Shown here in pieces: positions 1,566 through 19,800 of a stretch of DNA of 20,000 nt (positions are counted from its first letter, which is position 1; each line of letters opens with the position of its first letter). The stretch is from positions 61,438 through 81,437 of the forward strand of contig QPGO01000266.1 in NCBI GenBank assembly GCA_008632985.1, read 5' to 3'. The translations under genes were made by a program, and so were the position numbers. Under the pieces are notes generated by a model. It worked only from the letters and a program-made list of their open reading frames with translations, was not told the origin of the DNA and did not search any database. Source of the stretch: Psammoneis japonica (Eukaryota).

Positions 1566-2530
1566 GGTCAAGTGAGACCTCCCAAGCCGGGAGTGGGTCA
1601 AGTAGTGTCAAGTTTCATTTTTTATTTTTTATTTTTTGTAAACTGGTCACCCCCTCGTTTTTATGGCCAGTGGCTAAAATTTTGTGTAGACACATACCAG
1701 GTTTGTACGCTCGTATATTTTCTACACAGAAAATATTTACTATCCATTTTACTGAAGCTATAAATGTCATATCTGTAACGGTTTGCTGCTAAATAAAGTT
1801 CGTTAATATAAAATATGAGTTAGCCGGGGTAGGGCTAGTTGGTCGCGCACGTTTGGGTTCGATGCAGCCGTGCAACTAGCCATACCCTTCAGGAAGAGCT
1901 GTTGGTTGCGCGCGAGCAGAAGCAACAAAGCAAAGAACACGGCGTGGGTCAAAACGTTTTAAAATGACGCAACAACAAGCAGCGAGAAGAAACCCAACTT
2001 GACCCATGAATACAGCGCATACATATTGTCCAACCACTTCAATAGTATCTCGTATTCCCAGCTTGTAGATGAGGGGACGGCGTTCACGTTTCTCGCCATG
2101 GTGTTGTTGTGCGTTATCATGTTGTTTGCGCATGAAGAACACGGGATCTATTTATCCGATAGTCACTGTGTTTTGGTAATAGTAGATGTTTCACTATATC
2201 CAATCTGAAGTTATTTTTTGAGAAGCGCTTCGCGACAACCCTGTTCGCACCGTTAAATAGAATTTTTTTTGTGCAGATTCCAGAGTTCTTTCGGGGTGTT
2301 CTGTAAGATTTTTGAATTGTGGTATATATATTTTAAAGACAAAAGAAATTTCAATGATATGTAAAAGCTTCGGAGATGTACATAAATTTATCTTTCATGT
2401 AGATCACGTAGATTATGTACCGGCGGAAAATCCACCGCATGTCAACTCACTCAGCAGCAATTCTACGTATATTCTACTTACACCTCACACACGTACACCC
2501 ACACCTACACAGTCTAATAACCGTGCACTA

Positions 2531-4250
2531 AGTGCTCGAGATCAAGTTGCGCACAGACTTGGCCGGCCACAGAAGGAGGAAAGGTGGTGCTGGGTGGGGC
2601 GGGCACACGATTGATGGAAAAAGGTGATGGGATGATGGATGATGTGGGCAAGGAGGGGGGCAGCAGAGCAAGGTGACAGGCTTGTTGCTGTGGTGCAGCA
2701 AATGTTGAGTGTTGGGGCACTCTGTGGTTGTCCATTGATAAAATCAGAAAGAAGGGCCCAACGGGTGAGTGCCAGCTGCAGCACCATCGTGCCTCCTGGA
2801 GATCTGGAACATTTGGTGCAACCTGAGTTGTGGTGTGCAGCTTGAAGCCAGGGGGGGGGGGCAAGAGAGCAGATGGGACAAGAAATGGTGCACTGGCGCA
2901 CAGAAGACACAGCAGCAAGGCACCAGCTGGCAGCAAACACAGGTTTTGCTGTTGGAAAACAAAAGATTTGCACTCTCAGACAGCTCCATGGCTGGCATGA
3001 ATTGCAAGTTTCATGGAAGGAAGCTCAAGTGCCACGCAAGTTGCACTGTGTTAAAAGGTGAAGTCAAGTCACAAAGACTCTTGTGTTGAAAGCAATGTGA
3101 AACAAAAAGCAAAGAGGGGGGCCTCGCTGGGGTGGAAGAGAAGTCCCGGCTCGGTCCACTCGCCGGGACGAGCTGGTTGTTTGTTTTGCAATGGGCTCAA
3201 TTTTGACATCCAAGCAGTTGAGAGCAAACTCCAGATGCAGTTTTGACACAAAATGACCAGTTTCTCAAGGGATTTCCTTCACCCAGTTTGTGCTGTGGTG
3301 CAAGTGCTGTGTGGACAGCAGCTGCAGCTCGGGGGCCAGTGCCAGGTGGCAACCCAGATGCATCAGCTTGCTCTTCAAAAGAGCTGCAGTCACAACCTAA
3401 CAAAGCCAGATGGCAGTTGCCAGAAGCAGATCTCTTGCTTGAAGTGAAGCTGCTGCTGAGTTGTTTTTGCACATGAAGAAAAACAACAAGAAAGCTCATT
3501 TCCAGCTGTGCCAGTGGGGCTGCTGGGTTTGCAAGTGAGAACAGGGGTCGTGCTGCAAGCTGGGGTGAGCAAAGTCACTGGAGACAACTCAAACTGGGGT
3601 CATGTGCATGATCTTGAAAAAAGGGAACAGGAGCACTGGATCAAAAGAAGAGAAAAAAAAGCACTGCACAGGCAAGGGCACCCTGCCGAGGCAGCAAAAA
3701 GCATGCCAATTGGCTTTGCTCCCTAGATGCACCAGCTGCTCCCCTGCAAAAGAGTTTTGTTGTTGCTGTGTTTCTGTCTTGTGCTTGTCATCAAAGTTTT
3801 GCATGTGTGCCGGACAAGCTGATGATTTGAACAAGGTGATGAAGCAACACACAAACATGGAGTGTGTGCATGGAAGTGGGCCGCATTTTGTAAAGGAGTT
3901 TCTGGCAATGCAGAGCAGCAGAGAACCTGCTGTGCAATTTAAAACCACCCACAAATGAATCATGGTGAGGCACTGAAAAGCGTGACAGAGCAAACTGGCG
4001 AGGGAACAAACTGCAAAGCATGGTCATGGTGTGCAAGCTCAAAACTCCTTTTCTGTGTTCTGCATTTTCGATGCACTGGCCAAAGGACTGCTTCAATCTT
4101 GACATCTCTCAGGCTTTGCTTCTGACAAAGTGATGAGGATTCCAATGTTTGTGCCATTGGCTGCAGGCATCCCGTGGCCTGTCATTGTTTTGTCTTTCGT
4201 TGGTGCGAACACAGTGGCACAACACATGCACAGACAGATGGGTGTTGTGT
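2531..4250. other. TpA-depleted and CpG-depleted, CA/TG-rich tract; probably a hypermutated repeat relic of unknown family
   Basis: Hand count: about 6 TA and about 26 CG dinucleotides in 1,720 bp, against roughly 100 each expected at even base composition. ORFs in all frames are Cys/His/Gln-rich and nearly Tyr-free. The left flank (2461-2530) is TA-rich. Confidence 0.7.
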
Positions 4251-5350
4251 CATTTTTAAGGGGCTTAAGTGATTGTTTTATTGGGCTTATGTGATGTTTT
4301 GTCAGTGGGCATTGCATTTAAGTGTTTTGGCCAATCAGAAAACTCTTCCTAAGATTTGCGATATTTTCGTCAAAGGAAAAGAATAAATGAAATGCTCTTT
4401 CTTTTGCCCAAACAACAAATCACAATTAGCCATATCGAAACAAAGGCAATTTGTTGATGTCACATGTGTCATGACATGATGTGATCATATTTGTTCTATC
4501 ACTGCGTCACGATCATCACAACACTGTCGTGTAGCCCTCCAAAAACACGATTAGCGAACTTAGCGTCACACAATCATACTTCTATATTCACGAACAATTT
4601 TTACAACTCCTCACATGCGTTCTCTCATCAAAGAATACTTTTTCAGGTAGTGACGTCATTCGTGCTATTTTTTTAACAACTTCAATGCCTTTCTATCTCG
4701 AAAACGAGTCAGAATCCCCCCACTTTTCTTGTTTCCAAAACATCTCTTTTACTCAGCTGCATAACATGAGCGAATCATAAAAAAAATCTGTTGAACCATT
4801 TTGGAGATATTTCTGCTTTTATGTAATCGTGTGGTATGTCATGAGCTCTTTTTCTGAATTTTGGTCTCAACTTCACGATCGGTGTTCCATGCATGGCAAC
4901 GTACATCTGGGACACCAATAATCCAGGTGTCACACTAGCCGTCAAGATTTCTTGAAATAAAACCCGACATTTTCTCCCTTTAATCCAAGATTGTGCTGAT
5001 TTGACAAGTCAGCTTTTCTGAAATATTCAACAACAAACATCTATGTTCCTCAATTTAACTATTTACCCCCCCCCCCATCCGACAAGCCTTATGTGTATAT
5101 TTAATTCTATTTTAATTTCTGGATTGTGTGTTAATCAACTTTCTGGATCAAAATCGCCGCCTGTGTCCGTCAATCTAGATTCTAATTGTTTTCTCAATTT
5201 TCTCTCCCTGCCCATTCCATCCTTCCTCCCCGTCCATCCGCACGTTGTATCTCTATGTTTCTACCCTCACTGTGTCCCCAAGTGATTAATGCTGCACCCA
5301 CTGTTTACTTTCGATTCTCTTCTCAACTCCTTTGTCTATGTGCATCGGCC

Positions 5351-7831
5351 ATGTCGTCTGATGGTCTTGTTTGTCCATGGTGTAAACGAACCGGTTTCTT
5401 TTCCGAACGTGGCCTCAGCAGGCACATCGCAACTAACTGCCTCCGTTCCGCCATTTCCACCAAGTCTTTTAGTTGTCCTCGTTGCGGACAACGTGGATTT
5501 GACTCTGAAAACAACGTGCAGTATCACCTATCTCGGCACTGCACCGCAGCATCTGGTCTCCATCCCCCCTTGACACAGTTGCGCCGTACAACCCAACCAT
5601 CTTCTTCATCCGGCGGAACATCTCTTTCCTCTCATCCTCTGGATTCTGCCTCCGTCGGCTCCCTTGGATCCAACACCAACAAACCCAAATGTCCCCATTG
5701 CCGTGTTCCCTTTTCCAACATCGCCCTTCATCTACAGAAGTACTTGCCCTGCCGTGAAAAAGAGGAAATGTCCCTTCGCCTACATGCCGCATCTTCCACT
5801 GCCGCCCATGCACTTCCCCCTCCAGACGACGACCATGATGAATCACTGGACGACCATGATGATCCTGCTGGGTTTGGTTTCTCTGACGACAACCCCCCTC
5901 CTCCCCTCCCCGAAGTCCTTTGGAATCCAGCTCCATCTCTTCCCACACCAACGGACAATTCTTTTCCAGCTTGTCCTCCCTCTGCCGGAAGTGGACTACG
6001 CCCACCCTCCGTCAGACGCTCTGGTCGATTGCGTTCAGCTGCCAACTTTGCTGCCGCTAGTGCAGCCTCCCAAAATGTCCGCCGATTTGTTTTGTTTGCA
6101 GATGATGGTGTGTCCGCCCTTGGAGAGGACAGTCCTGTGGATGTTCCCGAGTTCATTGGAGCCGACCGTCGCGATGGTAGTTGTGGCCCCCCCTCAATTT
6201 CCCGTCCGATAGAAGATCCTGTTTCCTCCCTCGATCAACACAACCCTCTTGGCCCACCGCGTGATATCGCACCCGATGAGGATTTTGATGTACCTCCAGT
6301 CTACTCGCCCAGCATCGTACCCATGGTACGTTTGCTACATTTGTGTCGTTGGTCAGGTGTTGCAATTGACTTTGTCGACAAAGTAATGAGAATTTTGCAT
6401 GAAGAGCATGCAGAAAAAAGACTGGATTTGTCCAAGCCACCCATCACTACCGCCGTGGCGATGAAGCAACTCCTAGGGTTATTTCCCAATGTTCCTCTCC
6501 CCCGCACTGCCACTGTGATGCTAGAATGTAACAATCCAACACAGCAACAGAAGGATGGACCCAAATGTCGTTGCTCCCCACCTTTCCCGGTTTACAGTTT
6601 CACCGAGACCTTGCAGGATCTCTTCACCGAGCCAGTGTTCCGTGATCTTTCCAAGTTGCAGGTTAATCCAAATGATGTCTGGTCACCTTATGTGCCACCC
6701 CCCACCGACGGCGATTTGGAACCCAGCGCTAGCCCGGCTGACGGTTTTGAGATGTCGTTCCCGGATTATCCTGGGGACTGGCGATTGTCCACTCAAAGTC
6801 AAGACATGGGTGACGGCGAGTGGCAACAACGTTGCACCAATGCAAAGGAAACGGCATCTGATTTTCACGTTCACCTTGTTAATTACTCGGACAAGACCGG
6901 AGTTAATGCGGTCAATCCTCACGGGATGGAGCCTGTAATGTACTCACTTACCATGATTCGAGAGGACGCACGCCGTGACTACCGTTGTTGGCGTCCACTC
7001 GGATTCATACCCAATTTGGACAGGAAAGACAAGAAAGACAAGCTTGGGTACCTTGTTGTTGCCAACTGTCACCGCATTCTCAAGGAGGTCCTCCGTGGTC
7101 TGCTTCATTGCCAGGCGAATCCACCCATTGTTCGTGCAATAACAGGCACTCAACACCGCTATGTCAGAGCGGTGATACATTGCAACTCCCTGTTGGGGGA
7201 CATCCTCAATCAAGAACGCATTTGTGGAAGAGTCATGGGCCGAAGCAAGACCGAGAGGTTGTCTCACAACTGCCATGTGCCCTCCCACCGTTCTGATGAC
7301 CCCCTTCATGTCTGCCAATTTTTTAACCAAGCTTTCATAGAGTTGCTCACTGTAGCTGCATTGGGTCCGGATCCAGAGGATGACAACAGCCGTTGGCACC
7401 AGCATGTTAAAAGCGTTTCCCGGAAACATCGTACAATGACATCAAAAAAAAAGACTGAGACTGAGCTAGCTTCATCCCTCATTCGCCGAATGACTATATG
7501 CTCCAAAATTTTGAGAAAAGTGTTTGGACAGCACGCAGTGGACAATGCTTACTTTCCACTTAACATGGGCGACAACCCACGTGGTGTATTTGGCATGACC
7601 GTTGCTGACATAATGCATGTGTTGGAGGCGGGCATTGTCCCTCAAATGATGGAGGTAATCATTGGAGAGATGTCTGCCAAACAGAAAGAGGAATACGACC
7701 GTATTGCATCTGAGTTGTTCTGCACATCCCATTGTCGTCCAGGTCAGAGACGTGACTGCCCACGAATTCGAGTTAACGGGGGACTTTCCACACTCAATCA
7801 ACTTGCTAACATATCTAAAAGCACTGGTTAG
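5351..7831 (+). CDS. Plavaka-like (CACTA-related) DNA transposase with N-terminal zinc fingers, apparently 3'-truncated
   Basis: Three CxxC..H..C fingers (CPWC, CPRC, CPHC), a Pro/Asp-rich linker, then YSDKT..MEPVMYSL..WRPLGFIPNL, GDILNQERICGR, DIMHVLEAG and RDCPR..GLSTLNQL, matching recalled Plavaka-type motifs. First ATG is at 5351. Similarity stops near 7810. Confidence 0.7.
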   Translation: MSSDGLVCPWCKRTGFFSERGLSRHIATNCLRSAISTKSFSCPRCGQRGFDSENNVQYHLSRHCTAASGLHPPLTQLRRTTQPSSSSGGTSLSSHPLDSASVGSLGSNTNKPKCPHCRVPFSNIALHLQKYLPCREKEEMSLRLHAASSTAAHALPPPDDDHDESLDDHDDPAGFGFSDDNPPPPLPEVLWNPAPSLPTPTDNSFPACPPSAGSGLRPPSVRRSGRLRSAANFAAASAASQNVRRFVLFADDGVSALGEDSPVDVPEFIGADRRDGSCGPPSISRPIEDPVSSLDQHNPLGPPRDIAPDEDFDVPPVYSPSIVPMVRLLHLCRWSGVAIDFVDKVMRILHEEHAEKRLDLSKPPITTAVAMKQLLGLFPNVPLPRTATVMLECNNPTQQQKDGPKCRCSPPFPVYSFTETLQDLFTEPVFRDLSKLQVNPNDVWSPYVPPPTDGDLEPSASPADGFEMSFPDYPGDWRLSTQSQDMGDGEWQQRCTNAKETASDFHVHLVNYSDKTGVNAVNPHGMEPVMYSLTMIREDARRDYRCWRPLGFIPNLDRKDKKDKLGYLVVANCHRILKEVLRGLLHCQANPPIVRAITGTQHRYVRAVIHCNSLLGDILNQERICGRVMGRSKTERLSHNCHVPSHRSDDPLHVCQFFNQAFIELLTVAALGPDPEDDNSRWHQHVKSVSRKHRTMTSKKKTETELASSLIRRMTICSKILRKVFGQHAVDNAYFPLNMGDNPRGVFGMTVADIMHVLEAGIVPQMMEVIIGEMSAKQKEEYDRIASELFCTSHCRPGQRRDCPRIRVNGGLSTLNQLANISKSTG

Positions 7832-8303
7832 TCCCGCTCAGTTTCGATTCTCGGAATTGGAACAAACCCTTCTGAATGACAGAGCCTCAATTTGGTGTCA
7901 AGGCTGTTTTCTATGCTAAACGGGGCCAGATGCACTGGCGGGGGACAATGCCCAGATGGATTATTGGTCAACACTGCAGGTTGAGTCGGGGGTGGAATGT
8001 CATCGGGAGAGAAGTACGATGTATCGGACGGAAAAGAGATTCGTTGGTTCCATTTCGGTAACGTGGCCTAACAGGTAAGGGATTTGGTATGATTCTTCGG
8101 GGTGGGATCATTTTGAGGTTGTTGTTCTGCAACGGGAATGACAAGGCTACGGAAGACAAGAAATAGAGTTACCCAAACAATGTCTGTTCGCTGCTCAACA
8201 TGAGTTGATCAGCGACTTGGACAAGATTCGGGAGAATGTGGTTTGCTGTGGGAGAGGTACTTTATATCACGATACTGTACAGGCTAGTATTAAGTGTATA
8301 AGT

Positions 8304-8498
8304 AAAAAAGTGGCACCAAAGGTGTGCATTACCATGTGTGTGTATTAACAAAAAACTGATACCAAATTCTTCTGTTAACAAATATGTTTAATAATAGAAA
8401 GGTGACACCGAATTACTTTGTTAACAAATAGTTCTAATAATAAAAAAGTGATACCAAATTACTATGTTAACAGACAGGTGTATTACTAAAAAAGTGAT
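8304..8498. repeat. Diverged tandem repeat, exact 46-bp period, about 4.2 copies
   Basis: The aaaaaagTGataccaaatt..tgttaaca unit has its TG at 8311, 8357, 8403, 8449 and 8495. Confidence 0.85.
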
Positions 8499-8701: not shown

Positions 8702-8761
8702 GACTATTTGCAAAAAAAATGTCTGTGATGCACCCGACAGATAGACTACCGTTGTCAAAAC
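8702..8761 (+). repeat. Copy 1 of a diverged 60-bp direct repeat split by the Gypsy insertion
   Basis: gactattt..aaaaaaa..acagatagact.ccgttg.caa.ac aligns without gaps to 13767-13826. Confidence 0.85.
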
Positions 8762-9192
8762 TGCAGTATGCCTCGCTACTGGACAACACGGCGAGACCGT
8801 GCATAAGCCTCTTGTACGTGGCAACGTAGCATTGTTAACGCGTACCTGGGAAGCACGACCACAGGAGGGCGTGGCTCTAGGTCTTAGGCAATTCCAGAAG
8901 GATGCTAAGAGAGCATCCGTGTGAAGCACACTAGCCCGTCGTCTGGCCCACGATGGTAGCGTGATTCCACACGATGACATCACTCGTGCATGGCGCGTGA
9001 TGGCTTGATTCGCACGATCCATAATGCGAACGCACGATCGATTTGATACGATCCAAATGCGAACGAATAGGGATTTGGCAAGATTCCCTATTCGCACGAT
9101 CCCACTTTCTCTACTCTAAACTAGCTCATAATTTTCACAACGACAAAGTCGTAACACATCTTCTTTTCAGCGCCTAGCACATACATAGGGCA
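8762..9192 (+). repeat. Gypsy 5' LTR
   Basis: TGCAGTATG...CATAGGGCA; 427/431 identical to 13323-13753 by manual comparison. Confidence 0.97.
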
Positions 9193-9253
9193 CAGTAATA
9201 TTACTCCCGCATATTGTGTGAGGTAACGAAATCTACAGAAACGAAACTACGAA

Positions 9254-10426
9254 ATGTTGGTAGGACCGACAAATCTCAAAATGACCATGAAGAAGCAGAT
9301 TAAGCCGCCGATTCCGTTCGCACGGCCGGAGAAGAAAGAGCTACAGCAGGGCGAGCACCAGACGTTCAAACTACGTAACAACCCTGCTGATCCGGATAGT
9401 CCAACGCATGAGATGGGCATCCCGTACCTTTCTACGGCTACATGCAAGACACTCCTAATCTTTCTACGCAACGTGGATCGCATGCATGAAGGACAAAACA
9501 TGACGACCGGGCCAGCGAAATTTGCCCTTATGCGTGACCTACTACAGGGCGATGCTCTGACGTCATTCAACAATGCCGCTGACAAGCAGGCATCCCAAAC
9601 CAACGCTACGTACGCAGCATGCGTCGCGAAGCTAAAGGAAAGTATCTTCCCACATGGGGCGGTACCATTGCAGAAGCATTATCTGAGGCGCTTCATGCGC
9701 AAGCCCGCAGAGGTTTCTACTCGTGACTATGTCACGAGGGCTGTTGAAATTAACGGCTGTGTCTCTCAGTTTCCACCCGTGACGGAGGATGGAGAAGCAC
9801 CGGCACCATTACCTAATGACAAACTATGTGATATGTTCGAGTACGGTGTGCCGAACGCATGGCAGAAGTTCATGACGCTACAGAATTTTGACCCGTTGGC
9901 GCATACTATCGCCGAATTTGTACAGTTCTGGGAGCGCATCGAGCAGGTCGAGCTTGCCGAAGGTAACCTGGACCAACATGCTAAGATTCCACGTAAGCGG
10001 GGACGTAGAACGGACAATCCTGAGTCGTTGATCACGACCCAATGGAACACCCAGAAGTCGTGTATGCTACACGGGACTAACTGTGGACATCATACGGAGG
10101 ATTGCCGTCAGCTCAAGCACCACGTGAAACGTGTCAAGACTGGACATTCCAATAACGGAGGCAGCAAGCCTAATACAAAACCTCGGAATGAGGAAGACAT
10201 TAACACTCTCATCGGATCGAAGGTCGAGGAGTTCTTTGCCAACGCTCAAAAAAAGCGCAAGGCACGCGAGGAGGAGCTTAATCACTTCCGCGACCTCAAC
10301 TTAAGTGCTCGTTCAGTACGTCTAACGACTGTACCGTTAAATTTCGGTTACCAGAATTATCCGAAACTGCAGAACTTGAACATACCGTCCACGTACACAA
10401 CGGAAAGTTGGGCAAGTACGATATGA
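9254..10426 (+). CDS. gag: Gypsy Gag; true C-terminus lost near 10310, the remainder is out-of-frame read-through
   Basis: PPIPFARP, QKHYLRRFMRKP, EYGVPNAWQ and zinc knuckle CMLHG...HHTEDC, located directly after the 5' LTR. Confidence 0.88.
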   Translation: MLVGPTNLKMTMKKQIKPPIPFARPEKKELQQGEHQTFKLRNNPADPDSPTHEMGIPYLSTATCKTLLIFLRNVDRMHEGQNMTTGPAKFALMRDLLQGDALTSFNNAADKQASQTNATYAACVAKLKESIFPHGAVPLQKHYLRRFMRKPAEVSTRDYVTRAVEINGCVSQFPPVTEDGEAPAPLPNDKLCDMFEYGVPNAWQKFMTLQNFDPLAHTIAEFVQFWERIEQVELAEGNLDQHAKIPRKRGRRTDNPESLITTQWNTQKSCMLHGTNCGHHTEDCRQLKHHVKRVKTGHSNNGGSKPNTKPRNEEDINTLIGSKVEEFFANAQKKRKAREEELNHFRDLNLSARSVRLTTVPLNFGYQNYPKLQNLNIPSTYTTESWASTI

Positions 10427-13283
10427 TTATTGGACGTGACATTCTGGAGACACAAGGCATTGACATTGTCTTCTCTAAACAAATGACAGAGTGGCCATTG
10501 GTCAATGGAGAAGTGCCAATGAGGCACGTAGATGCTACGGTAAAAACCTCCTTCTATCTTCAAGATCCAGAAGCCTTATCTTCGGAAATCTTCGGAAACC
10601 GACTGGATTTCACGTATTTTAGACGCCAAGTGCACGCCGGCCTGCCTCGAGGACATAACGCGAGAGGCAATAGGACTTTCTACAGTTCAACAAAACGACC
10701 TTTTGGCACTATTGAAATGCCATGAGTCCTTATTTGATGGGACATTAGGAGAATGGAAGGGAGAACCCTACCACATCCAACTCAAGGAGGGTGTAGAACC
10801 ATGCCACGCTCGTCCGTATAAAGTACCTCGTGCATACGAAGAAATGCTACGTAAGGAAGTAGAACGCCTAGTGCATATCGGTGTTCTCAAACGCGTTAAC
10901 CGATCCCAATGGGCAGCTCCATCATTTATCATACCGAAGAAAGACTTAATGGTACGCTTTATTAATGATTTCAGAGAGCTGAATAAACGGATCAAGCGAT
11001 TGCCTTATCCGATTCCTCATATCCAAGATATGCTACTTGAGCTCGAAGGCTTTATGTGGGCTACATCGCTGGATTTAAACATGGGCTATTATCACATCTG
11101 ATTGGATGCTGATAGCAAGAAGCTCTGCACGCTCATCTTCCCATGGGGCAAGTATGAGATGCAGGTATTGCCCATGGGATTATGTAATTCGCCAGACATT
11201 TTCCAAGAACGCATGTCAGGCTTATTTGAAGATCTATCGTTCGTTCGAACGTACTTAGATGACCTTCTCGTCGTGACGAAAGGCACCTATGAAGATCACC
11301 TCAACAAACTTGAAGAAGTTTTATTGAGGGTCCAGAAAGCAGGACTAAAAGTTATCGCAACTAAATCTCATTTCTGTCAAACCCAATTAGAATACTTGGG
11401 TTATCTGGTCAACAGAGACGGAATACAACCAATACCTAATAAAGTCGACGCCATTAAGCGAATCGCGACCCCAACCAATAAACGCGACCTACGGTCATTT
11501 ATTGGTGTGGTGAACTACTACCGTGACGCGTGGATTAGACGTTCTGAAGTCTTGGCTCCGCTAACACGACTCGTAAGCGAGACTGTTAAGTGGGAGTGGA
11601 CGTCCGTTGAAGACGAGGCGTTCGAAACCGTTAAACGGGTGATATCGGATGATATCTTATTATCACATCCTGATTTTAATAAACCCTTTGAGATACATAC
11701 CGATGCCTCTAAATATCAATTGGGAGCAGTTATATCCCAAGATAATAAACCTGTCGCCTTTTACAGCAGAAAGCTTAATAGTGCGCAATTAAATTATACA
11801 ACAACGGAGAGAAAATTGCTCGCCATTGTGGAGACGTTGAAAAAATTTCGAACGATTCTCCTTGGTCATCGTATAATTATATATACTGATCATAAAAATC
11901 TTACGTACAAAGTATTCAATACCGAGCGCGTTATGCGCTGGCGGTTAATATGCGAAGAATACGGTCCCGAATTACGCTATGTTAAGGGTACCCATAACTT
12001 AGTCGCTGACGCTCTTAGTCCTTCGGCTAGCACCCAGCTTGCCTTCCAAGGCCAATCCGGATGTAAAAGACACTCCATCGAGTCGTCCTTTGCATGAAGC
12101 TTTTAATGCAGACGCGCAAGACGACATATCTCTGCCTATTAGCTTCAAGCGCATTCAAAAAGCACAACAAAAGGACAAGCACCTACTCTCACGAGCTAAG
12201 GACTCGTCCGACTACTCCATTCGCGCGTATCGTGGGGGAGGGTCATCACGACAGTTAATCTGTCATAAGGACAAAATCGCAGTACCACAGTCATTGCAGG
12301 TTCCGCTAACTGAATGGTACCACGAGACACTGTGTCATCCAGGTGAGACACGTACGGAAATATCTATTGCCCAGCACTTCTACTGGCCTAGTATGAGGTC
12401 TATGGTGCATTCTACGTGCGTTAAGTGCGATCGATGCCAGAAGACAAAACGCCGAACGCAGCATTATGGGAAGCTACCAGAAAAGGTCGCAGAGATAATT
12501 CCATGGGAGACTCCATGCATGGATGTGACAGGGCCATATAAAATTCAAAGATGCGGAAAGGACACTTTGCAATTATGGGCAGTCACAATGATTGACCCAG
12601 CAACCGGGTGGTTCGAGATTGAAGAAGTGTCTACGAAACGCGCAGACGTCGTAGCAAACGTCGTGGAACAAACGTGGCTATGCAGACATCCGTGGCCAAC
12701 CCAGGTGGTTTATGACCGTGGGACAGAATTTATGGCAGAATTTAGCCAGATGATTAAAAATGACTATGGGATTTTGAAGAAACCCATAAGCAAGCGGAAT
12801 CCACAGGCAAATGCCATGGTGGAACGTGTGCACCAGACACTTGGTAACATGGTACGTTCCTTTTCAGTACAGGATATGGAACTGGACGAAGATGACCCAT
12901 GGAGTGGCATCCTCTCCGCAGTAGCCTTCGCTATTAGAGCTACGGTACACACGACCACGCGTGCAAGTCCCATGCAATTGGTCTTCGGACGTGATGCGGT
13001 TTTATCTATTGCCCATCGTGCTAAGTGGAAGTACATAGAAACCAGAAAACAGAAGCTTATTCACTTAAATAACAAGCGTAAAAATCAGAAATGCAAGGAG
13101 CACCAACACACCGTAGGGCAATTGGTACTTATCAAACAGGAACAATCCTCTAAATACGGTTCTGACAGCCATGCAGGGCCCACCAGAGTTGTCCGTGTAT
13201 ATGACAACGGCACGTTGCGTATCCAGAACGGAGCGCTGATAGATACGTACAATCTACGGCAGATTGTACCCTATCACCAGTAA
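10312..13283 (+). pseudogene. pol: Gypsy Pol (half protease, RT, RNase H, integrase), disrupted
   Basis: YDMIIGRD (PR C-half); WAAPSF, DFRELN, LDLNMGYYHI, LPMG, YLDD (RT); TDAS, YTDHKNL, ADALS (RNase H); H..LCHPG..CxxC, YDRGTEF, NPQANAMVERVH (IN). Lesions: 10-bp duplication 10578-10597, TGA at 11099-11101, 4-nt insertion at about 12020-12023. Confidence 0.95.
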
Positions 13284-13313
13284 GACATCCTGTCACTTAA
13301 CCGCCCTGATCAT

Positions 13314-13320
13314 GGGGGAG
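13314..13320 (+). other. Polypurine tract of the Gypsy element
   Basis: GGGGGAG ends 2 nt before the 3' LTR. Confidence 0.85.
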
Positions 13321-13322
13321 TG

Positions 13323-13753
13323 TGCAGTATGCCTCGCTGCTGGACAACACGGCGAGACCGTGCATAAGCCTCTTGTACGTGGCAACGTAGTATTGTTAAC
13401 GCGTACCTGGGAAGCACGACCACAGGAGGGCGTGGCTCTAGGTCTTAGGCAATTCCAGAAGGATGCTAAGAGAGCATCCGTGTGAAGCACACTAGCCCGT
13501 CGTCTGGCCCACGATGGTAGCGTGATTCCACACGATGACATCACTCGTGCATAGCGCGTGATGGCTTGATTCGCACGATCCATAATGCGAACGCACGATC
13601 GATTTGATACGATCCAAATGCGAACGAATAGGGATTTGGCAAGATTCCCTATTCGCACGATCCCACTTTCTCTACTCTAAACTAGCTCATAATTTTCACA
13701 ACGACAAAGTCGTAACACATCTTCTTTTCAGCGCCTAGTACATACATAGGGCA
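13323..13753 (+). repeat. Gypsy 3' LTR
   Basis: Direct repeat of 8762-9192, followed by the TSD AAAC. Confidence 0.97.
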
Positions 13754-13766
13754 AAACATCACATGG

Positions 13767-13826
13767 GACTATTTACGAAAAAAACACCCGTGGTGCCCAC
13801 AACAGATAGACTGCCGTTGGCAACAC
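13767..13826 (+). repeat. Copy 2 of the 60-bp direct repeat (69-bp period in the reconstructed empty site)
   Basis: Ungapped alignment to 8702-8761. Confidence 0.85.
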
Positions 13827-13952
13827 ACATTTAGCGAGAAAGCCGTTTTCATTGCAAAGTAATGGGTGCGGACTTTCGCTATATTGGGTCTGTTCCACTT
13901 AAAGAAAAAGACTGGGTACCAATTGATTTGGCAGAACAGGCAACTTCAGAGA

Positions 13953-14726
13953 ATGGCGCGGAAGTGTTCTGTGAACGGATGCCGGAAATTTGCCCGTTGG
14001 CCGACAACATTATGCCAGAAACATGGCAAGTTACTAACACGCCTGGGTGAAATGAAATCTCATGTCGTCAAGAGCAAGAAGGTGGGGTCCAAAGAAAGAG
14101 AGCACCAGGAAAGAAAAAAAGGCTACTTACAAAAATTCAAAACACCACCACCCCTGCTCAACAAGATAACAACGCTTGCAAACAAGGCACCAAGTAGGAA
14201 GGGAGAAAAGGAAGGACACCGTTTTGTCGGTGAGTTCGCCATTAACAAAAAGGAAAAGGCGGAAGGTATTGGGTTGGCAGAAAAAATGTTGGAGTTAATT
14301 CCTGGCTTTCCCCTGGTGGGTGATTTAAGCAGAAAGATGTCCCGGCACACAGCAGTAAACGCTCCTGCTTCAAGTTCAAGATCTAACTTCTGGTCAAAGG
14401 GGGAAATTCATCGCGATTACGCGGAAACAAAATTATTACCTGGTAACAAATTTTTCACCATGTTTCTGTTCCTCGATGACACGACGGAGCACAATGGTGC
14501 AGTGGAGACATGGCCGGATAGTTGTGAGGTAACATTGAATGAGAAGGAACGCGAAAGACAATTGGTTAGGTTGGGTTTGGAAAAACAATTACTGGTTGGA
14601 GAAGCAGGCACTGCATTTGTTTTTGACGCAAGAATCATGTTGCACCGAGCTTTGCCTAACAAAATGAATTCGGATCGAAGGAACATGGCATGTCTAGTCC
14701 ATAATTTCGACACAGTAAGTGTGTGA
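13953..14726 (+). CDS. PhyH-like 2-oxoglutarate/Fe(II) dioxygenase with an N-terminal CxxxGC..LCxxHG zinc finger and basic linker
   Basis: MARKCSVNGCRKFA..LCQKHG; Lys-rich linker; IHRD (HxD), FLFLDD..NGAVETWPDS, GEAGTAFVFDARIMLHRALPN (distal His) and a downstream Arg (SDRR). First in-frame ATG at 13953; ORF uninterrupted. Confidence 0.78.
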   Translation: MARKCSVNGCRKFARWPTTLCQKHGKLLTRLGEMKSHVVKSKKVGSKEREHQERKKGYLQKFKTPPPLLNKITTLANKAPSRKGEKEGHRFVGEFAINKKEKAEGIGLAEKMLELIPGFPLVGDLSRKMSRHTAVNAPASSSRSNFWSKGEIHRDYAETKLLPGNKFFTMFLFLDDTTEHNGAVETWPDSCEVTLNEKERERQLVRLGLEKQLLVGEAGTAFVFDARIMLHRALPNKMNSDRRNMACLVHNFDTVSV

Positions 14727-15679
14727 ACATAGTAAGCGTGTGAACAAGTGTGTGTTGGAATACAAAACTAGCGAAGTAGTAAGTTGACATAGGTACAAAG
14801 TGGGTTTGTGTAGAGGGCTAATAAACAATGCATTGCTTACATAGACGACAGTTACATCACAAACAAAGTGAAATTGCAAAGTTACCCACTTTTGGCAGGC
14901 TTGAATTTACGTTTGATGTCAGACCCTAGGTCGTTCCTAGTGGAATGCCTAGTCTCCACGGCATCGTCTCTTTTCTTGGTGCACTTGTGAAGTAGGTGCC
15001 TGTCGACACCGCCTCCCCACGATAGATTGTCTGGACAGGCAGGAACAAAGAATGCTTCATGCCTCCATTTGTGCGTATAAACACAAAACATCATGTCCAG
15101 TGAAATAACAATGGCACCTTCAGGACACTCGTTGGACAGCTTCTCCTTGAGTTGGTTCTGTGGACGCGTTCCAGCCCCAGGTGGGACTCCGTGTGACATT
15201 GGGCCCGTAGAATTCTACGTGCGAGCTCCGTAGTACGAGAATTTAATTAATGGATATATTTATCTTCAACATCAAATAAACGGCCAAGTTTGTGGCACAA
15301 TTATGCCTCTCACCACTCGACGTTTTTGCAAATGCGCCTGCCCTATGCGATTCTTAAGACATTAAAGAATCGCGCTGTAACAAAAAATGTCAAAAGTTGT
15401 TGGACGGATCGCTCAATAAGTGTACCGTAAAATGACACAAAATGTCGAAAAAATCACGTAGAAATCTACGTGCGCGACATACGACGTGATTCAAAAAACT
15501 GTCGATGTCACAGTTCAGCAGTACGAGGTCCCACCTAGACCTGGAACGCGTCTGTGTCGCGTTGTTGTCAAAAAGCATTCGCCCATTGTAGTTATTGAAA
15601 AAATCTTTAAGTTGTTCAGACGGTACAACCGACGAACAGCATCGTCTTCAGAGAGGAAGTCCTGATTGATCAGGGCAGG

Positions 15680-16820: not shown

Positions 16821-16891
16821 CTCACCCAAGTTTCAAGTCTACCTTCGCTTCCCAACAAGAATTGCTTGTCCTGACACCACTTTTGTCTACC

Positions 16892-19800
16892 ATGGTTCTC
16901 ACTCGTCAGCAACAAACTGATGGTTTCAAGCACGTTGTTGGAACCGTGCTTGCCCAAGGTGCTGGGAGCCCTCTTCGTTTGGCTTTGACCCAAGACGGCA
17001 CGGACTCGTGTCAAGAACTGTTCACGTTCATGCCGTCCCAAATCGACTCGCTTGAGTACGATAACGGCACTAATGTGATCCCTTTGCCCCGCGGTTATAA
17101 GAACATGTTAGCAGCTCTAATTAGTCTGTACATTGTCAAAGCACACGAAGGTCTTGACATTGCCAATGACTCCTCGTTGTCCACGCATGATGAGTTCCTT
17201 GCCTACCGCCTCAGCCCCGACTGCATGTCTTCTGTGTCCGTCGGCAGCTCGCCCCTCGCACCTCCGCATGTCACCAACCCGACCAAGGCACGCGACCCGG
17301 TACGAGACTTCAAGCGAGGCATCAAGCGTGACCCCACCGCTTTCACGGCTCTCAAATCCGACAAGCAGTGGCACACTTGGCACACCTCACTTGTGGCACA
17401 AGCCCGTGCCCAAGACGTCGAGTGCATTCTAGACTCGTCGTACAAACCGACCAGCCCCGAAGACAAACTGCTCTTTGCTGAACAGCAAAAGTACATGTTC
17501 GCCGTCTTTGAACGCATCCTTCTCACCAACAAGGGCAAGGCTCTCATTCGCGAAAATGTGGGGTCTTCTGACGCCCAGACCGTCTACCGCGCCTTGTCTG
17601 AGCATGCGCTCGCCTCCACCCGCGCATCTGTCGAGTCCTCCACCTTGCTCACGTACCTTACCACCGCACGTCTTGGTGATGGTACTTGGAAAGGTCCGAC
17701 CCACGGGTTCATCCTTCATTGGCAAGATCAGTTGCGCAAGTACGAGGCACTCATCCCGGCCAGTGACCACTTCTCTGAAGGACAGAAGCGCGTCATGCTC
17801 GAGAATGCCGTACATCCTGTCGAGGAACTTCGTGCTGTCAAGAACCAAGCTGATCAGCATCGTATGCAGAGTGGCAAGAGCCTCACATACGATCAATGTT
17901 GTGGCTTGCTCCTCTCCGCGGCGGCTCAGTACGACAGTACGTTTCAACCCAAGACGACACCTCGAGCTCCCCAACGCGCCATATACGCACACGACGTCTA
18001 CTCCGAGGAACCGTCCGATGATGTGTTCTACGACATTGACAGCGACATTGACGTCCTTCAGGCTAATGCTGCCTACACCCGTGGTCCCAGCCTCACCGGT
18101 GACCAATGGAAACGTCTCCCTCCCGACCACCAACGGATTTGGGATTCGTTGCCCCATTCCTCCAAGGCGATCATCCTTGAGCATTCTCATCCACCTCCCC
18201 GCAACCCGCGAGCCAGCAACTACCATGAGTCCGTTACGGCCAACCTTCACGACCAACGCCTTGGGAGTGACGGTGATGTCAACTTGTCCAACACGACTCC
18301 TGCTGACTCTGGTGACCCCGCTCCAAATGTGGATGCCACTTCGGATAATCCCATCCTGGCGCACCTCACCAAGCGCAAGCCACTGCCACCCGGTGATCTG
18401 CAACGCCTGTTGTCTCCTAACCAAGCCCCCAATGCTAGTCGACCGGGGCCATCCGCCGCTCCCTCTACCTCGCCAGCTCCCACCAATGACATAGAACTTA
18501 ACGGCCGCACTTACCGCCGCGTTAATAACCACAATGTCATTTACTCTGCCTCTGCTCATCGCTCCACACGCACTGGTGCTCTAGTCGATCGTGGGGCCAA
18601 CGGCGGCATTGCTGGCAACGACGTTCACGTCATTGCACGCACCTCTCGCCAAGTCGACGTTCAGGGCATTGACGACCATCAATTGGTGGACATCCCTGTT
18701 GTCACCGCTGGTGCCGTCATTGAGACACAGCGTGGTCCCGTCATCGCCATCCTCCATCAGTGCGCATGCACGGGAAAGGGCAAGACCATTCATTCCTGCG
18801 GCCAGCTCGAATGGTACAAACAGGATGTCAACGATCGCTCTGTCAAGGTGCCCAACGGCTTGCAACGTATTGCCACCCCTGATGGCTATGTCATCCCAAT
18901 TGACATCAAGGGCGGCCTGCCTTATGTTGCCATGCGACCTTACACTGATGCCGAATGGGACACCCTGCCCCATGTCATCCTTGCCGGTGATGACACATGG
19001 GATCCTTCTGTCCTCGATCACTCTGTCACTGACGACGACCAGTGGTACGATGCGATCTCTGACCTACAGGACGATCCCACTGCCAACCTATTTGATGAAT
19101 ACGGCAACTACCGTCATCGTGTTGTTGTCAACAAGACCATCATGTCCGCCCCCTTGTCTGCCGATCACGCGTCCGCCCTCGATGATCACCTCATTCCGAA
19201 CGACGACGTGTTCTACGAGTGTCATCTACACGCGATTGACCCCAAGGACGATGACGTTCCGCCCCCGGAGCGCACTGTGCAGCCCAAGGACCCCCCCTTC
19301 GAGTCTCTTCGGCCTTGCTTTGGCTTCCTACCTACCGACACGGTCCGTCGTACTTTTGACTGCACCACGCAGTACGCCCGCATGCCCGCCGGTACACACC
19401 TTAGGAAGGCCTACAAATCGCCCAACCCCGCCCTTAATGTGCACCGCCGCAACGAGCCTGTCGCCACTGACACCGTTTATGCCGACACCCCGGCCGTCGA
19501 CTCTGGTTGCACCAGCGCCCAACTGTTTGTTGGCACCGAGTCTACTGTCACTGATGTCTACGGCACCAAAACGGACAAAGAGTTTGTCAACACACTCAAG
19601 GATCAGATCCGTGAGCATGGTGCCCCATCCAAACTCATTAGCGACCGTGCTCAAGTTGAGATCAGCAACAAGGTGCTCGGGATCCCACGAGCCCTCTTTA
19701 TCTCCAGCTGGCAAAGTGAGCCTCACCAGCAACACCAAAACTTTGCCGAGCATTGACACCAGACCGTGAAGCACATGGCAAACACTGTCATGGATCGTTT

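Follow-up and report, generated by a model that had tools for sequence, protein, structure and literature searches.

What has emptied a 1.7-kb tract of the Psammoneis japonica genome of almost all its TpA steps? The tract belongs to a transposon nest, with a Plavaka/EnSpm-type transposase gene 1 kb downstream of it, within the 20,000-nucleotide stretch of DNA analysed here (hereafter the window). A preceding sequence-only reading had taken it for an old repeat in which both TA and CG had been funnelled into CA and TG within a bounded domain. Our analysis retains parts of this account and leads us, tentatively and with somewhat less than even confidence, to prefer another one: the tract would form the main part of a discrete block, non-coding and multi-copy, with junctions for edges, shaped by transitions with biases at both CpG and TpA, and probably carrying an inherited state.

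Composition and content of the tract

The desert spans 2531 to 4256 and contains 6 TA and 26 CG in 1726 bp. From the base composition of 2531-4250, 104.3 TA and 106 CG would be expected, giving observed/expected ratios (O/E) of 0.058 and 0.245; the scarcity of TA noted earlier (about 6 in 1,720 bp, with long runs lacking any) is thus confirmed, as is a CpG content of about 26 that is low yet less depleted than TA. The remaining TA steps, at 2739, 3052, 3398, 3724, 3891 and 3940, belong to TAA in five cases and to TAG in one. All four of the longest TA-free runs of the window (346, 326, 317 and 313 bp) fall within the tract, the next elsewhere measuring 233 bp. The rest of the window, with 0.046 TA per base, would predict 80 in 1726 bp (Poisson P(<=6) = 9e-27), and even the rate of the TA-poor 750-bp stretch at 5501-6250 yields P = 3e-5. 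The TA-poorest 1726-bp windows in 123,478 bases of comparison DNA, namely the rest of the window and 24 loci of transposase relatives, hold 24 and 35 TA, and nearby coding DNA, where it is poorest in TA, has an O/E of 0.2-0.3, far above the 0.06 of the tract. A and T still make up half of the bases of the tract.

Pyrimidine-purine (YR) steps are CA or TG in 92% of cases, with 176 CA (O/E 1.84) and 201 TG (O/E 1.74; mean of both 1.79) evenly mixed along the tract, while the YR total is unchanged at 0.238 and YRYR words number 101, against 106 expected at the rest-of-window rate. Nowhere else in the window does the share of CA and TG among all YR steps hold at 0.82-0.97 in 300-bp windows. GpC is in excess (148, O/E 1.40), ApT is in deficit (69, O/E 0.66-0.67), and TGCA outnumbers CATG by 31 to 14. 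A patch at 3125-3169 has kept six of the 26 CpGs within 45 bp (3125, 3147, 3152, 3161, 3164 and 3169). With a plus-strand purine fraction of 0.569, as against 0.498 in the left flank and 0.44 in the right, the tract has a history separate from both flanks.

Signals of coding, RNA structure or low complexity are absent from the tract. The suspicion that its many open reading frames (ORFs) are spurious is borne out, and a coding reading is rejected: a Pfam family is absent from all ten tract ORFs (none with E < 0.07; one chance-level match at E 0.077), no real protein relative was found, and the period-3 signal is 3.7, compared with 13.5 at 5300-7831 and 46 at 16862-19756, the two large ORFs tested. 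The minus-strand ORF at 2542-3024 has no match of 88-280 aa in a collection of 5.8 billion proteins, and none of 142 pattern matches in JGI metagenome contigs was confirmed; the ORF at 3589-4023, also on the minus strand, has two matches among 1.84 billion representatives, both long, internally repetitive proteins which we judged spurious. A structured RNA was rejected with no Rfam family, no tRNA and fold z-scores of -0.07 and -0.24. So was an origin in microsatellites or cryptic simplicity, 8- to 12-mer repeats and compressibility being equal to what a first-order Markov chain of matching dinucleotide frequencies yields. Trinucleotides lie near the dinucleotide prediction (z of at most 2.4), at least as closely as those of other window segments; the overall departure from such a chain, 58.8 against a mean of 58 for other segments, is uninformative on whether the tract is less structured.

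Could the block have come from another compartment or genome with its own dinucleotide usage, captured by way of a mobile element? Base skews and dinucleotide usage unlike all other parts of the window would fit such an origin, as would the sharp edges described below. However, no relative emerged from the two protein collections or, for one ORF, from the metagenome contigs, and we know of no source with a TA O/E near 0.06. We regard a foreign origin as improbable. An origin in a dinoflagellate was rejected as well, a search for a spliced-leader relic having turned up none.

Edges, copies and surroundings of the block

The left edge is as sharp as previously described: the 70 bp at 2461-2530 contain 10 TA, the last one at 2529 inside the CACTA of CACTAAGTG (2526-2534, plus strand), which we tentatively regard as the left edge of the tract. 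Transposons of the EnSpm/CACTA type have CACTA as their terminal motif, according to the available part of PMC12730594. The right edge, at 4256/4257, is sharp too: 317 bp free of TA are followed by 10 TA within 180 bp, so that the gradual return of TA that had been read from about 4255 onwards is in fact an abrupt one at 4257. CG scarcity extends past this point, to about 4359. The adjoining segment of normal TA density (4257-4652) opens with a 22-bp tandem repeat (4254-4300), closes with TAGTG (4648-4652) and shares the depth bin of the tract; it may tentatively form one repeat unit with the tract, as its 3' part. This TAGTG lies near a depth step in the contigs of run X1 (1000 in bin 4003-4669, 3087 in bin 4670-5336). 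Its pairing with the CACTA at 2526 is post hoc, with further TAGTG/CACTA sites at 4933 and 14938, and the TA desert stops 400 bp short of this proposed right end.

Within about 12 bp of the left edge, another copy of the left-flank repeat parts from the window sequence. One X2 contig departs from the window near 2518; a second, from another copy, crosses from the left-flank repeat over the edge to 2542 with 11 of 13 letters matching, which suggests that left-flank repeat and tract can travel together. X2 contigs, which may be transcripts, leave 2669-4669 uncovered, and no RNA data set is listed for the stretch; neither observation gives evidence on expression either way. As both edges are sharp and the left one lies at CACTA and close to a divergence of copies, a junction between sequence blocks fits better than the edge of a chromatin domain, which is less likely. 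The edge near 2525 would then more probably be a repeat boundary than the limit of homology- or heterochromatin-guided targeting that had been proposed for it.

Contig depths were compared within run X1, which also contains the neighbouring single-copy gene. Summed depth is 915-1148 over 2669-4669 and 31 over the unique positions 1-1334; at about 30 times the single-copy level (a contig depth, not a copy number), the tract is therefore a repeat and not single-copy. While the repeat of the earlier account stands, its old age is less certain: in places, 1 to 9 X1 contigs carry a depth of 400-1300, which hints at near-identical copies whose state was inherited from a master copy, not acquired by decay in place.

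Misreading of modified bases as transitions, in assembly or base calling, could in principle disguise genuine TA and CG as CA/TG. The two error types would each amount to a transition at a self-complementary step, and red-algal Plavaka elements are reported with an N6-adenine methylase and a 2OG oxygenase in the available part of 10.1101/2025.02.11.637652. However, at least about a quarter of the sampled tract 31-mers (about 24%; 0.35 of 210 words, the flanks supplying at most 14%) occur exactly in X1, whereas about 4% would be possible with an error every ~9 bases, and X1 matches the neighbouring unique 1695 bases without any substitution. Four tract positions are among the 40 best-supported differences shown, none at a CpG; all X1 contigs disagree with the window there, and in no case do they restore TA or CG. 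An artefact is accordingly disfavoured, and we consider it highly improbable.

How does the tract relate to its surroundings? To its left lies an AT-rich repeat (1335-2525) with a depth of 3790-4816 and a copy number above that of the tract; its true start is at about 1640-1700, the unique contig ending at 1695. A search for protein relatives of the single-copy neighbour gene found none. To its right, the transposase ORF (5186-7831, plus strand, 881 aa, probable start near 5282) carries N-terminal C2H2 fingers. It scores 23.4 bits against Pfam Plavaka, under the cut-off of 26.3, and is placed in the atlas at 0.96 with Plavaka clusters, whose sources are red algae, Mucoromycota and haptophytes; nine relatives were found (best 42% identity; PF18759 in five), and none in viral contigs. 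For a 964-aa ORF the atlas has no taxon on record. Further downstream follow a TA-rich 46-bp tandem array of 3.5 copies (8339-8498) and another array, made up of two units of roughly 70 bp (8702-8761 and 13767-13826), which is split by the insertion of a young plus-strand Ty3/gypsy LTR retrotransposon (8762-13753; 431-bp LTRs with four differing sites, TG and CA ends, AAAC flanks). A plus-strand ORF at 13866-14726, with a donor-like GTAAGT near 14715 at its end, has weak matches to 2OG-Fe(II) oxygenases (PhyH 21.5 bits, cut-off 22; 2OG-FeII_Oxy_3 E 0.0034) and no match among PDB sequences.

Tandem arrays next to a 2OG-oxygenase-like ORF are also reported for giant Plavaka elements of red algae (10.1101/2025.02.11.637652, available part), and the adjoining transposase and the CACTA/TAGTG at the candidate ends are reminiscent of the EnSpm/CACTA-Plavaka (CMCT) group (PMC12730594, available part). 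In contrast to the latter, the tract lacks a matching 3-bp target duplication (none of 2-3 bp is present, GTG preceding 2526 and ACG following 4652), an inverted repeat of more than five bases (the candidate ends agree at 14 of 30 positions, and a search for an inverted-repeat partner of the left end found none) and subterminal repeats, with no subterminal or internal repeat in the tract above shuffled controls (best score 47, null maxima 36-49). Neither source mentions a TA-free region in the parts available.

Sharing a block of repeats with the transposase, whose start it precedes by 1.0-2.75 kb, and opening with a CACTA motif, the tract might be the leader or upstream region of a Plavaka-type element in which TA and CpG are selected against. 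Possible benefits would be the avoidance of CpG methylation, of a target for TA insertion and of TATA-like or poly(A)-like words; transposons that duplicate a TA target occur in such genomes (PMC12730594, available part), and the clustering of surviving CpGs, six in 45 bp, looks as if one patch had been treated differently. However, such a tract is present in none of the 24 loci of transposase relatives (26-41% identity; lowest TA O/E per kb 0.23), a weak test as few of them reach 1.5 kb or more upstream, and its read depth in X1 is 3-4 times under that of the transposase region. Motif-level structure beyond dinucleotides is absent, and about 100 separate non-coding sites would demand very efficient selection. 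We hold selection to be unlikely, although it keeps some weight.

CpG decay and the loss of TpA

Which mutational processes could have produced the tract? CpG decay of methylated transposons has been published for rust fungi and other eukaryotes (10.1101/2020.03.18.996108; PMC4352252; both in their available parts), and its marks, a low CpG O/E (0.25) with an excess of CpA (1.84) and TpG (1.74) amid transition-dominated neighbouring repeats, are found here. Over the whole window, 1392 of the 1609 flagged differences from X1 are transitions, and sites with A/T in the window and G/C in other copies outnumber the converse 2.6-fold; several sites of the left flank are CpG in other copies, and between the 60-nt array units compared, seven of nine transitions fall on YR steps. 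Decay of CG to CA/TG thus predominates in the divergence of the neighbouring repeats, which supports the CG part of the sequence-only reading. However, this process leaves TpA in place. In simulations on local DNA, the loss of 75-100% of the CpGs lowers the TA O/E from 0.68 to 0.59-0.56, as against 0.06 observed, a drop of the size of the artefact that PMC3829696, in its available part, attributes to Duret and Galtier. One related locus (L006) still has a TA O/E of 0.55 at a CpG O/E of 0.11. CpG decay therefore explains the loss of CG and part of the gain of CA/TG, not the loss of TA, and since it stops at a TA O/E of 0.56-0.59, a second process is needed.

Simulated conversion of both TA and CG to CA/TG in local DNA reproduces the CA/TG excess (mean O/E 1.85 +/- 0.08, observed 1.79), and to this extent the proposed funnel holds. 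It never yields the observed GpC (1.40) or ApT (0.67), neither value being attained in any of 400 window segments or 322 locus segments, and the TGCA:CATG ratio of 31:14 is matched by none of the former and about three of the latter. Thus, with its GpC excess and ApT deficit, the tract is not simply local DNA after a TA/CG funnel.

Decay in place, in which homology- or heterochromatin-guided conversion would have saturated an old copy within a bounded domain, has the merit that the CA/TG excess equals the yield of lost TA and CG, and that the YR and YRYR numbers are unchanged, as transitions alone would leave them. At 3249-3250, moreover, the window reads CA and nine of nine X1 contigs read TG, a double difference expected from independent outcomes; it is, however, the only one of its kind in the tract among the best-supported differences shown. 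Apart from the GpC and ApT values that the model does not produce, base-sharp edges, the left one at a transposon-end motif, argue against it, as do the few contigs at high depth, which suggest near-identical copies, and a purine content unlike both flanks, which transitions cannot cause. Transition-tolerant searches, finally, brought up no less-mutated copy in the window or the 24 related loci: purine/pyrimidine-collapsed 26-mer seeds gave one chance-level 26-nt tract match in the whole window (35% base identity), and Smith-Waterman scores reached 53 and 51 against the rest of the window (shuffled 50 +/- 4) and 63 and 64 against the related loci, for which the mononucleotide shuffles (51-59) understate the null. 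Overall, decay in place appears quite unlikely.

Among known systems, very-short-patch repair is the sole process known to us by which a word with TA is turned into words with CA/TG: in E. coli, its bias of correcting T:G mismatches to C:G is seen in a scarcity of CTAG and an excess of CCAG/CTGG. However, it is bacterial, confined to one context of 4 to 5 bases and preserves the methylase site, whereas the tract loses CpG. A retro-copy hyper-edited from A to I by an ADAR-type enzyme was rejected, as A-to-G changes would be expected on one strand whereas the enrichment concerns CA (176) and TG (201) alike, in an even mixture. ADARs favour U and A over C over G as 5' neighbour, a preference that is not reflected here, where ApA is enriched (O/E 1.34), unlike GpA (0.82). 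Repeat-induced point mutation (RIP) of ascomycetes offers a likeness in its context-dependent transition signature, its restriction to repeats and its sharp limits, but it has the opposite sign, turning CpA into TpA. RIP is indicated by a TpA/ApT of about 0.89 or more and a (CpA+TpG)/(ApC+GpT) of about 1.03 or less. The tract, with 6/69 = 0.087 and 377/193 = 1.95, is no RIP-mutated repeat by these indices, which are those used in 10.1101/2020.03.18.996108 (available part). Our search of the open-access literature on TA-free or TpA-depleted repeats and on A-to-G hypermutation of transposons found no such tract described.

The reading we prefer is that of a block of tens of copies, most likely beginning with the CACTA at 2526 and ending with the TAGTG at about 4652, whose edges would be junctions of sequence blocks with different histories. 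Transitions would have driven nearly all YR steps to CpA/TpG: CpG would have been lost by deamination of methylated cytosine, the process dominant in the divergence of the neighbouring repeats, while a second bias, towards G:C, would have removed TpA and, less so, ApT. We know of no described process that accounts for this second bias, nor of any enzyme or repair bias that removes TpA in eukaryotes. It also speaks against this reading that other repeats of the window, among them the TA-rich arrays within the presumed Plavaka element, have not lost TA. The TA-free state probably predates amplification, having been present in the founding copy of the family and inherited by the present one. That TA changed into CA/TG and not the reverse, when TA was lost, and where the element begins and ends are points that we infer.

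A bolder possibility, which we think improbable, would be a TpA-directed A:T-to-G:C process, the mirror image of RIP, acting on one transposon lineage, perhaps as a by-product of DNA modification by Plavaka enzymes. Candidate modifiers of TpA would be the 2OG oxygenase and the N6-adenine methylase reported in red-algal relatives; by analogy, thymine is hydroxylated in TpA contexts in kinetoplastids and dinoflagellates. Such a process and CpG decay together would push all YR steps to CA/TG.

What would follow for the defence of genomes against their repeats? RIP, CpG decay and similar context-dependent signatures in repeats are the main sequence record of this defence, and to our knowledge those described all lose C:G pairs. 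A near-elimination of TpA that is borne by a repeat over a kilobase scale has no described cause. If it is mutational, it points to a hitherto unknown DNA modification, repair bias or deaminase specific for TpA; if it is selected, it points to a cellular reader of TpA, be it a nuclease, a TA-inserting transposon or a modification enzyme, which this transposon lineage avoided.

Composition and limits of the tract

Between 2531 and 4250, TA occurs 6 times where base composition predicts 104 (observed/expected, O/E, 0.058), and CG occurs 26 times (O/E 0.245). In excess are CA (O/E 1.84), TG (1.74) and GC (1.40), while AT is depleted (0.66) and ApA and TpT runs are retained (1.34 and 1.26). No TA-free run elsewhere in the 20-kb window is as long as the four longest of the tract. 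The TA frequency of the window outside the tract would predict 80 (P(≤6) = 9e-27), and even at the rate of a TA-poor 750-bp stretch of the same window (5501-6250) the count has P = 3e-5; the lowest counts in tract-length windows of 123 kb of comparison DNA were 24 and 35. The TA desert of the sequence-only reading is thus borne out, as is its sharp left edge, with 10 TA in 2461-2530, the final one at 2529. Its gradual return of TA on the right is not: after 317 bases without any, TA restarts abruptly at 4257, with 10 in the 180 bp that follow. As the right edge is also sharp, we took the limits of the tract, from the TA positions at both edges, as 2531-4256. Eleven of its 26 surviving CpGs lie in two short patches, 3125-3169 (6 within 45 bp) and 2537-2608 (5 within 72 bp); just to its left, 2440-2512 is CA-rich, with degenerate CACACC/TACAC-like units that Tandem Repeats Finder reports as 1.9 copies of a 12-bp unit.

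The purine fraction is 0.569 in the tract versus 0.498 and 0.44 in its flanks. Since transitions leave purine content unchanged, the tract has an origin separate from the adjoining sequence, and its sharp edges would therefore be junctions rather than limits of a spreading mark. The edges thus more probably mark junctions of blocks than limits of a chromatin domain, which the domain-limited targeting proposed earlier would produce. That the block is foreign or captured DNA we consider highly unlikely; its difference from both flanks would fit such an origin, but its sequence was not found in protein or metagenome records.

A coding function was rejected, as the period-3 signal is 3.7 versus 13.5 in the ORF at 5300-7831 and 46 in that at 16862-19756. 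None of the 10 stop-to-stop ORFs of the tract contains a Pfam family; a search of 5.8 billion proteins found no relative for one, and a second has just two matches among 1.84 billion representatives, internally repetitive proteins judged spurious. These ORFs are by-products of absent TAA and TAG, as previously suggested. Known or structured RNA was ruled out, as was low-complexity sequence or a decayed microsatellite, since a first-order Markov chain of equal dinucleotide usage has as many repeated 8- to 12-mers and is as compressible; Tandem Repeats Finder reports one 20-bp array. Trinucleotides also approximate the dinucleotide-frequency prediction, which carries no evidential weight, as other window segments do so equally.

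The surrounding transposon nest

A repeat nest spans the window from about 1335 onward. At the left end of the window, an orphan single-copy gene lies at 314-1474 on the minus strand (transcript 1-1610), with a 96-nt GT..AG intron (837-932) skipped by one contig of sequencing run X2, whose contigs may be transcripts. This intron shows the window to be eukaryotic. The gene matches no Pfam family, and 5.8 billion proteins (212-676 aa) yielded no relative. An AT-rich repeat extends up to about 2525. Beyond the tract lie a Plavaka/EnSpm-type transposase ORF (5186-7831; Pfam 23.4 bits, below cut-off; 0.96 to Plavaka clusters of the atlas, a protein cluster collection; nine protein relatives, top identity 42%), tandem arrays rich in TA, a young Ty3/gypsy element (8762-13753, with 4 differences between its 431-bp LTRs), an ORF weakly matching 2OG oxygenases and, beyond 14.7 kb, elements of very high copy number. 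In its arrays adjoining a 2OG-oxygenase-like gene the window resembles the red-algal giant Plavaka elements, for which 10.1101/2025.02.11.637652 reports tandem arrays next to a ParB/2OG-oxygenase gene, as well as an N6-adenine methylase. Two array units of ~70 bp split by the gypsy insertion (8702-8761 and 13767-13826) differ at 13 of 60 sites; 9 of the 13 differences are transitions, 7 of these at pyrimidine-purine steps, among them TG/TA changes either way, TG/CA and TGCA/TACG. A MITE-like element (15163-15552) has 30-nt inverted ends, 83% complementary and 330 nt apart; its bin holds the window maximum of summed depth (254,004, with single-copy sequence at 31), and numerous contigs end loosely at 15163 and 15168. 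A 964-aa ORF on the plus strand (16862-19756; coding periodicity 46, depth 60,000-90,000) has no Pfam family, and its atlas neighbours are unnamed and, weakly, Copia-type gag/integrase clusters; a retroelement of very high copy number probably encodes it as its polyprotein.

CACTA, the end motif of EnSpm/CACTA elements according to PMC12730594, stands at 2526-2530, exactly on the left edge, and TAGTG at 4648-4652, adjoining a depth step between adjacent bins at 4669/4670; together they weakly suggest a candidate non-autonomous unit of 2.1 kb. Its 3-bp flanks are unlike each other, its ends agree at 14 of 30 positions and its final 400 bp lack the TA poverty; at the left edge, one X2 contig from another copy passes through to 2542 and another departs near 2518. 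Other parsings are possible, with a right-hand element from CA at 4251 followed by 22-bp repeats, or with ends at CACTA 4933 or TAGTG 14938. Among 24 metagenome loci encoding transposase relatives (26-41% identity), few of which reach far upstream, no such tract occurs (TA O/E per kb is nowhere below 0.23); their TA-free runs measure 220-370 bp at normal CpG (O/E 0.79-0.91), and two look like acidic coding stretches. This weakly argues that the tract would not be a family-wide feature. A selected TA/CpG-free cis-region of the Plavaka-type element we regard as an unlikely alternative.

Substitution processes

Transitions make up 1392 of the 1609 differences flagged among window repeats against contigs of sequencing run X1, A/T in the window facing G/C in other copies is 2.6 times commoner than the reverse, and several left-flank sites are CpG in other copies. 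These findings uphold the CpG decay claimed earlier, a process published for methylated transposons (10.1101/2020.03.18.996108 and PMC4352252), which explains the tract's CpG deficit and part of its CA/TG excess. It does not account for the TA deficit, as local DNA put through CpG decay in simulation drops from a TA O/E of 0.68 to no less than 0.56-0.59; a lowering of such size is the artefact that PMC3829696 treats in connection with Duret and Galtier. L006, the contig of one transposase relative, is a natural case of extreme CpG decay with TA kept (O/E 0.11 and 0.55). At 8149, 9048, 17302 and 17742 the window has TACG where all other X1 contigs have TGCG; recurrent G-to-A beside CpG creates TA here, the reverse of the change proposed for the tract.

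The proposed funnelling of TA and CG into CA/TG fits in part. Turning 94% of TA and 75% of CG in local DNA into CA/TG yields a CA/TG O/E of 1.85 ± 0.08 (tract 1.79) and keeps the totals of pyrimidine-purine (YR) steps and YRYR words, matching the tract. However, GpC of 1.40 or ApT of 0.67 was reached by none of 400 window and 322 related-locus segments, and the TGCA:CATG ratio of 31:14 was equalled by none of the former and about 3 of the latter. Such a funnel would thus be quantitatively adequate for CA/TG, YR and YRYR but is not sufficient alone: the wider pattern is one of alternating A/T steps lost, GpC gained and ApA/TpT kept. ADAR-like editing was rejected, CA and TG being both enriched and evenly mixed, ApA undepleted and GpA unenriched; compared with RIP, the tract has the opposite sign (TpA/ApT 0.087, (CpA+TpG)/(ApC+GpT) 1.95).

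Copies and history of the block

Unique sequence at 1-1695 is matched by X1 contigs without substitutions at depth 31. Summed X1 depth is 915-1148 on the tract (bins 2669-4669), 3790-4816 on the left flank and 1757-4215 in the transposase region; summed contig depth not being copy number, we read this only as tens of look-alike copies, in keeping with the repeat originally postulated. Of sampled 31-mers in 2400-4400, 35% are present in X1, the flanks' maximum share being 14%, so that at least about a quarter of tract words are exactly confirmed. Together with the scarcity of fully supported tract differences (4 among the 40 best-supported listed), this speaks against a base-calling artefact, to which we attach a negligible chance.

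At several tract positions a depth of 400-1300 is carried by a mere 1 to 9 contigs, a hint that many copies may be nearly identical and the TA-free state older than their amplification. At none of the 4 listed tract positions where every X1 contig departs from the window is TA or CG restored; one is a double difference, CA in the window versus TG in other copies. An inherited state is more probable than an old copy decayed in place, the case first envisaged, which is quite unlikely overall. We tentatively favour a discrete, multi-copy, non-coding block in whose lineage CpG decay would have removed CG and an undescribed bias TpA and ApT, both preceding amplification, such that the copies would have inherited the TA-free state. 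A TA loss of such magnitude has no described cause, which makes it a finding of interest.
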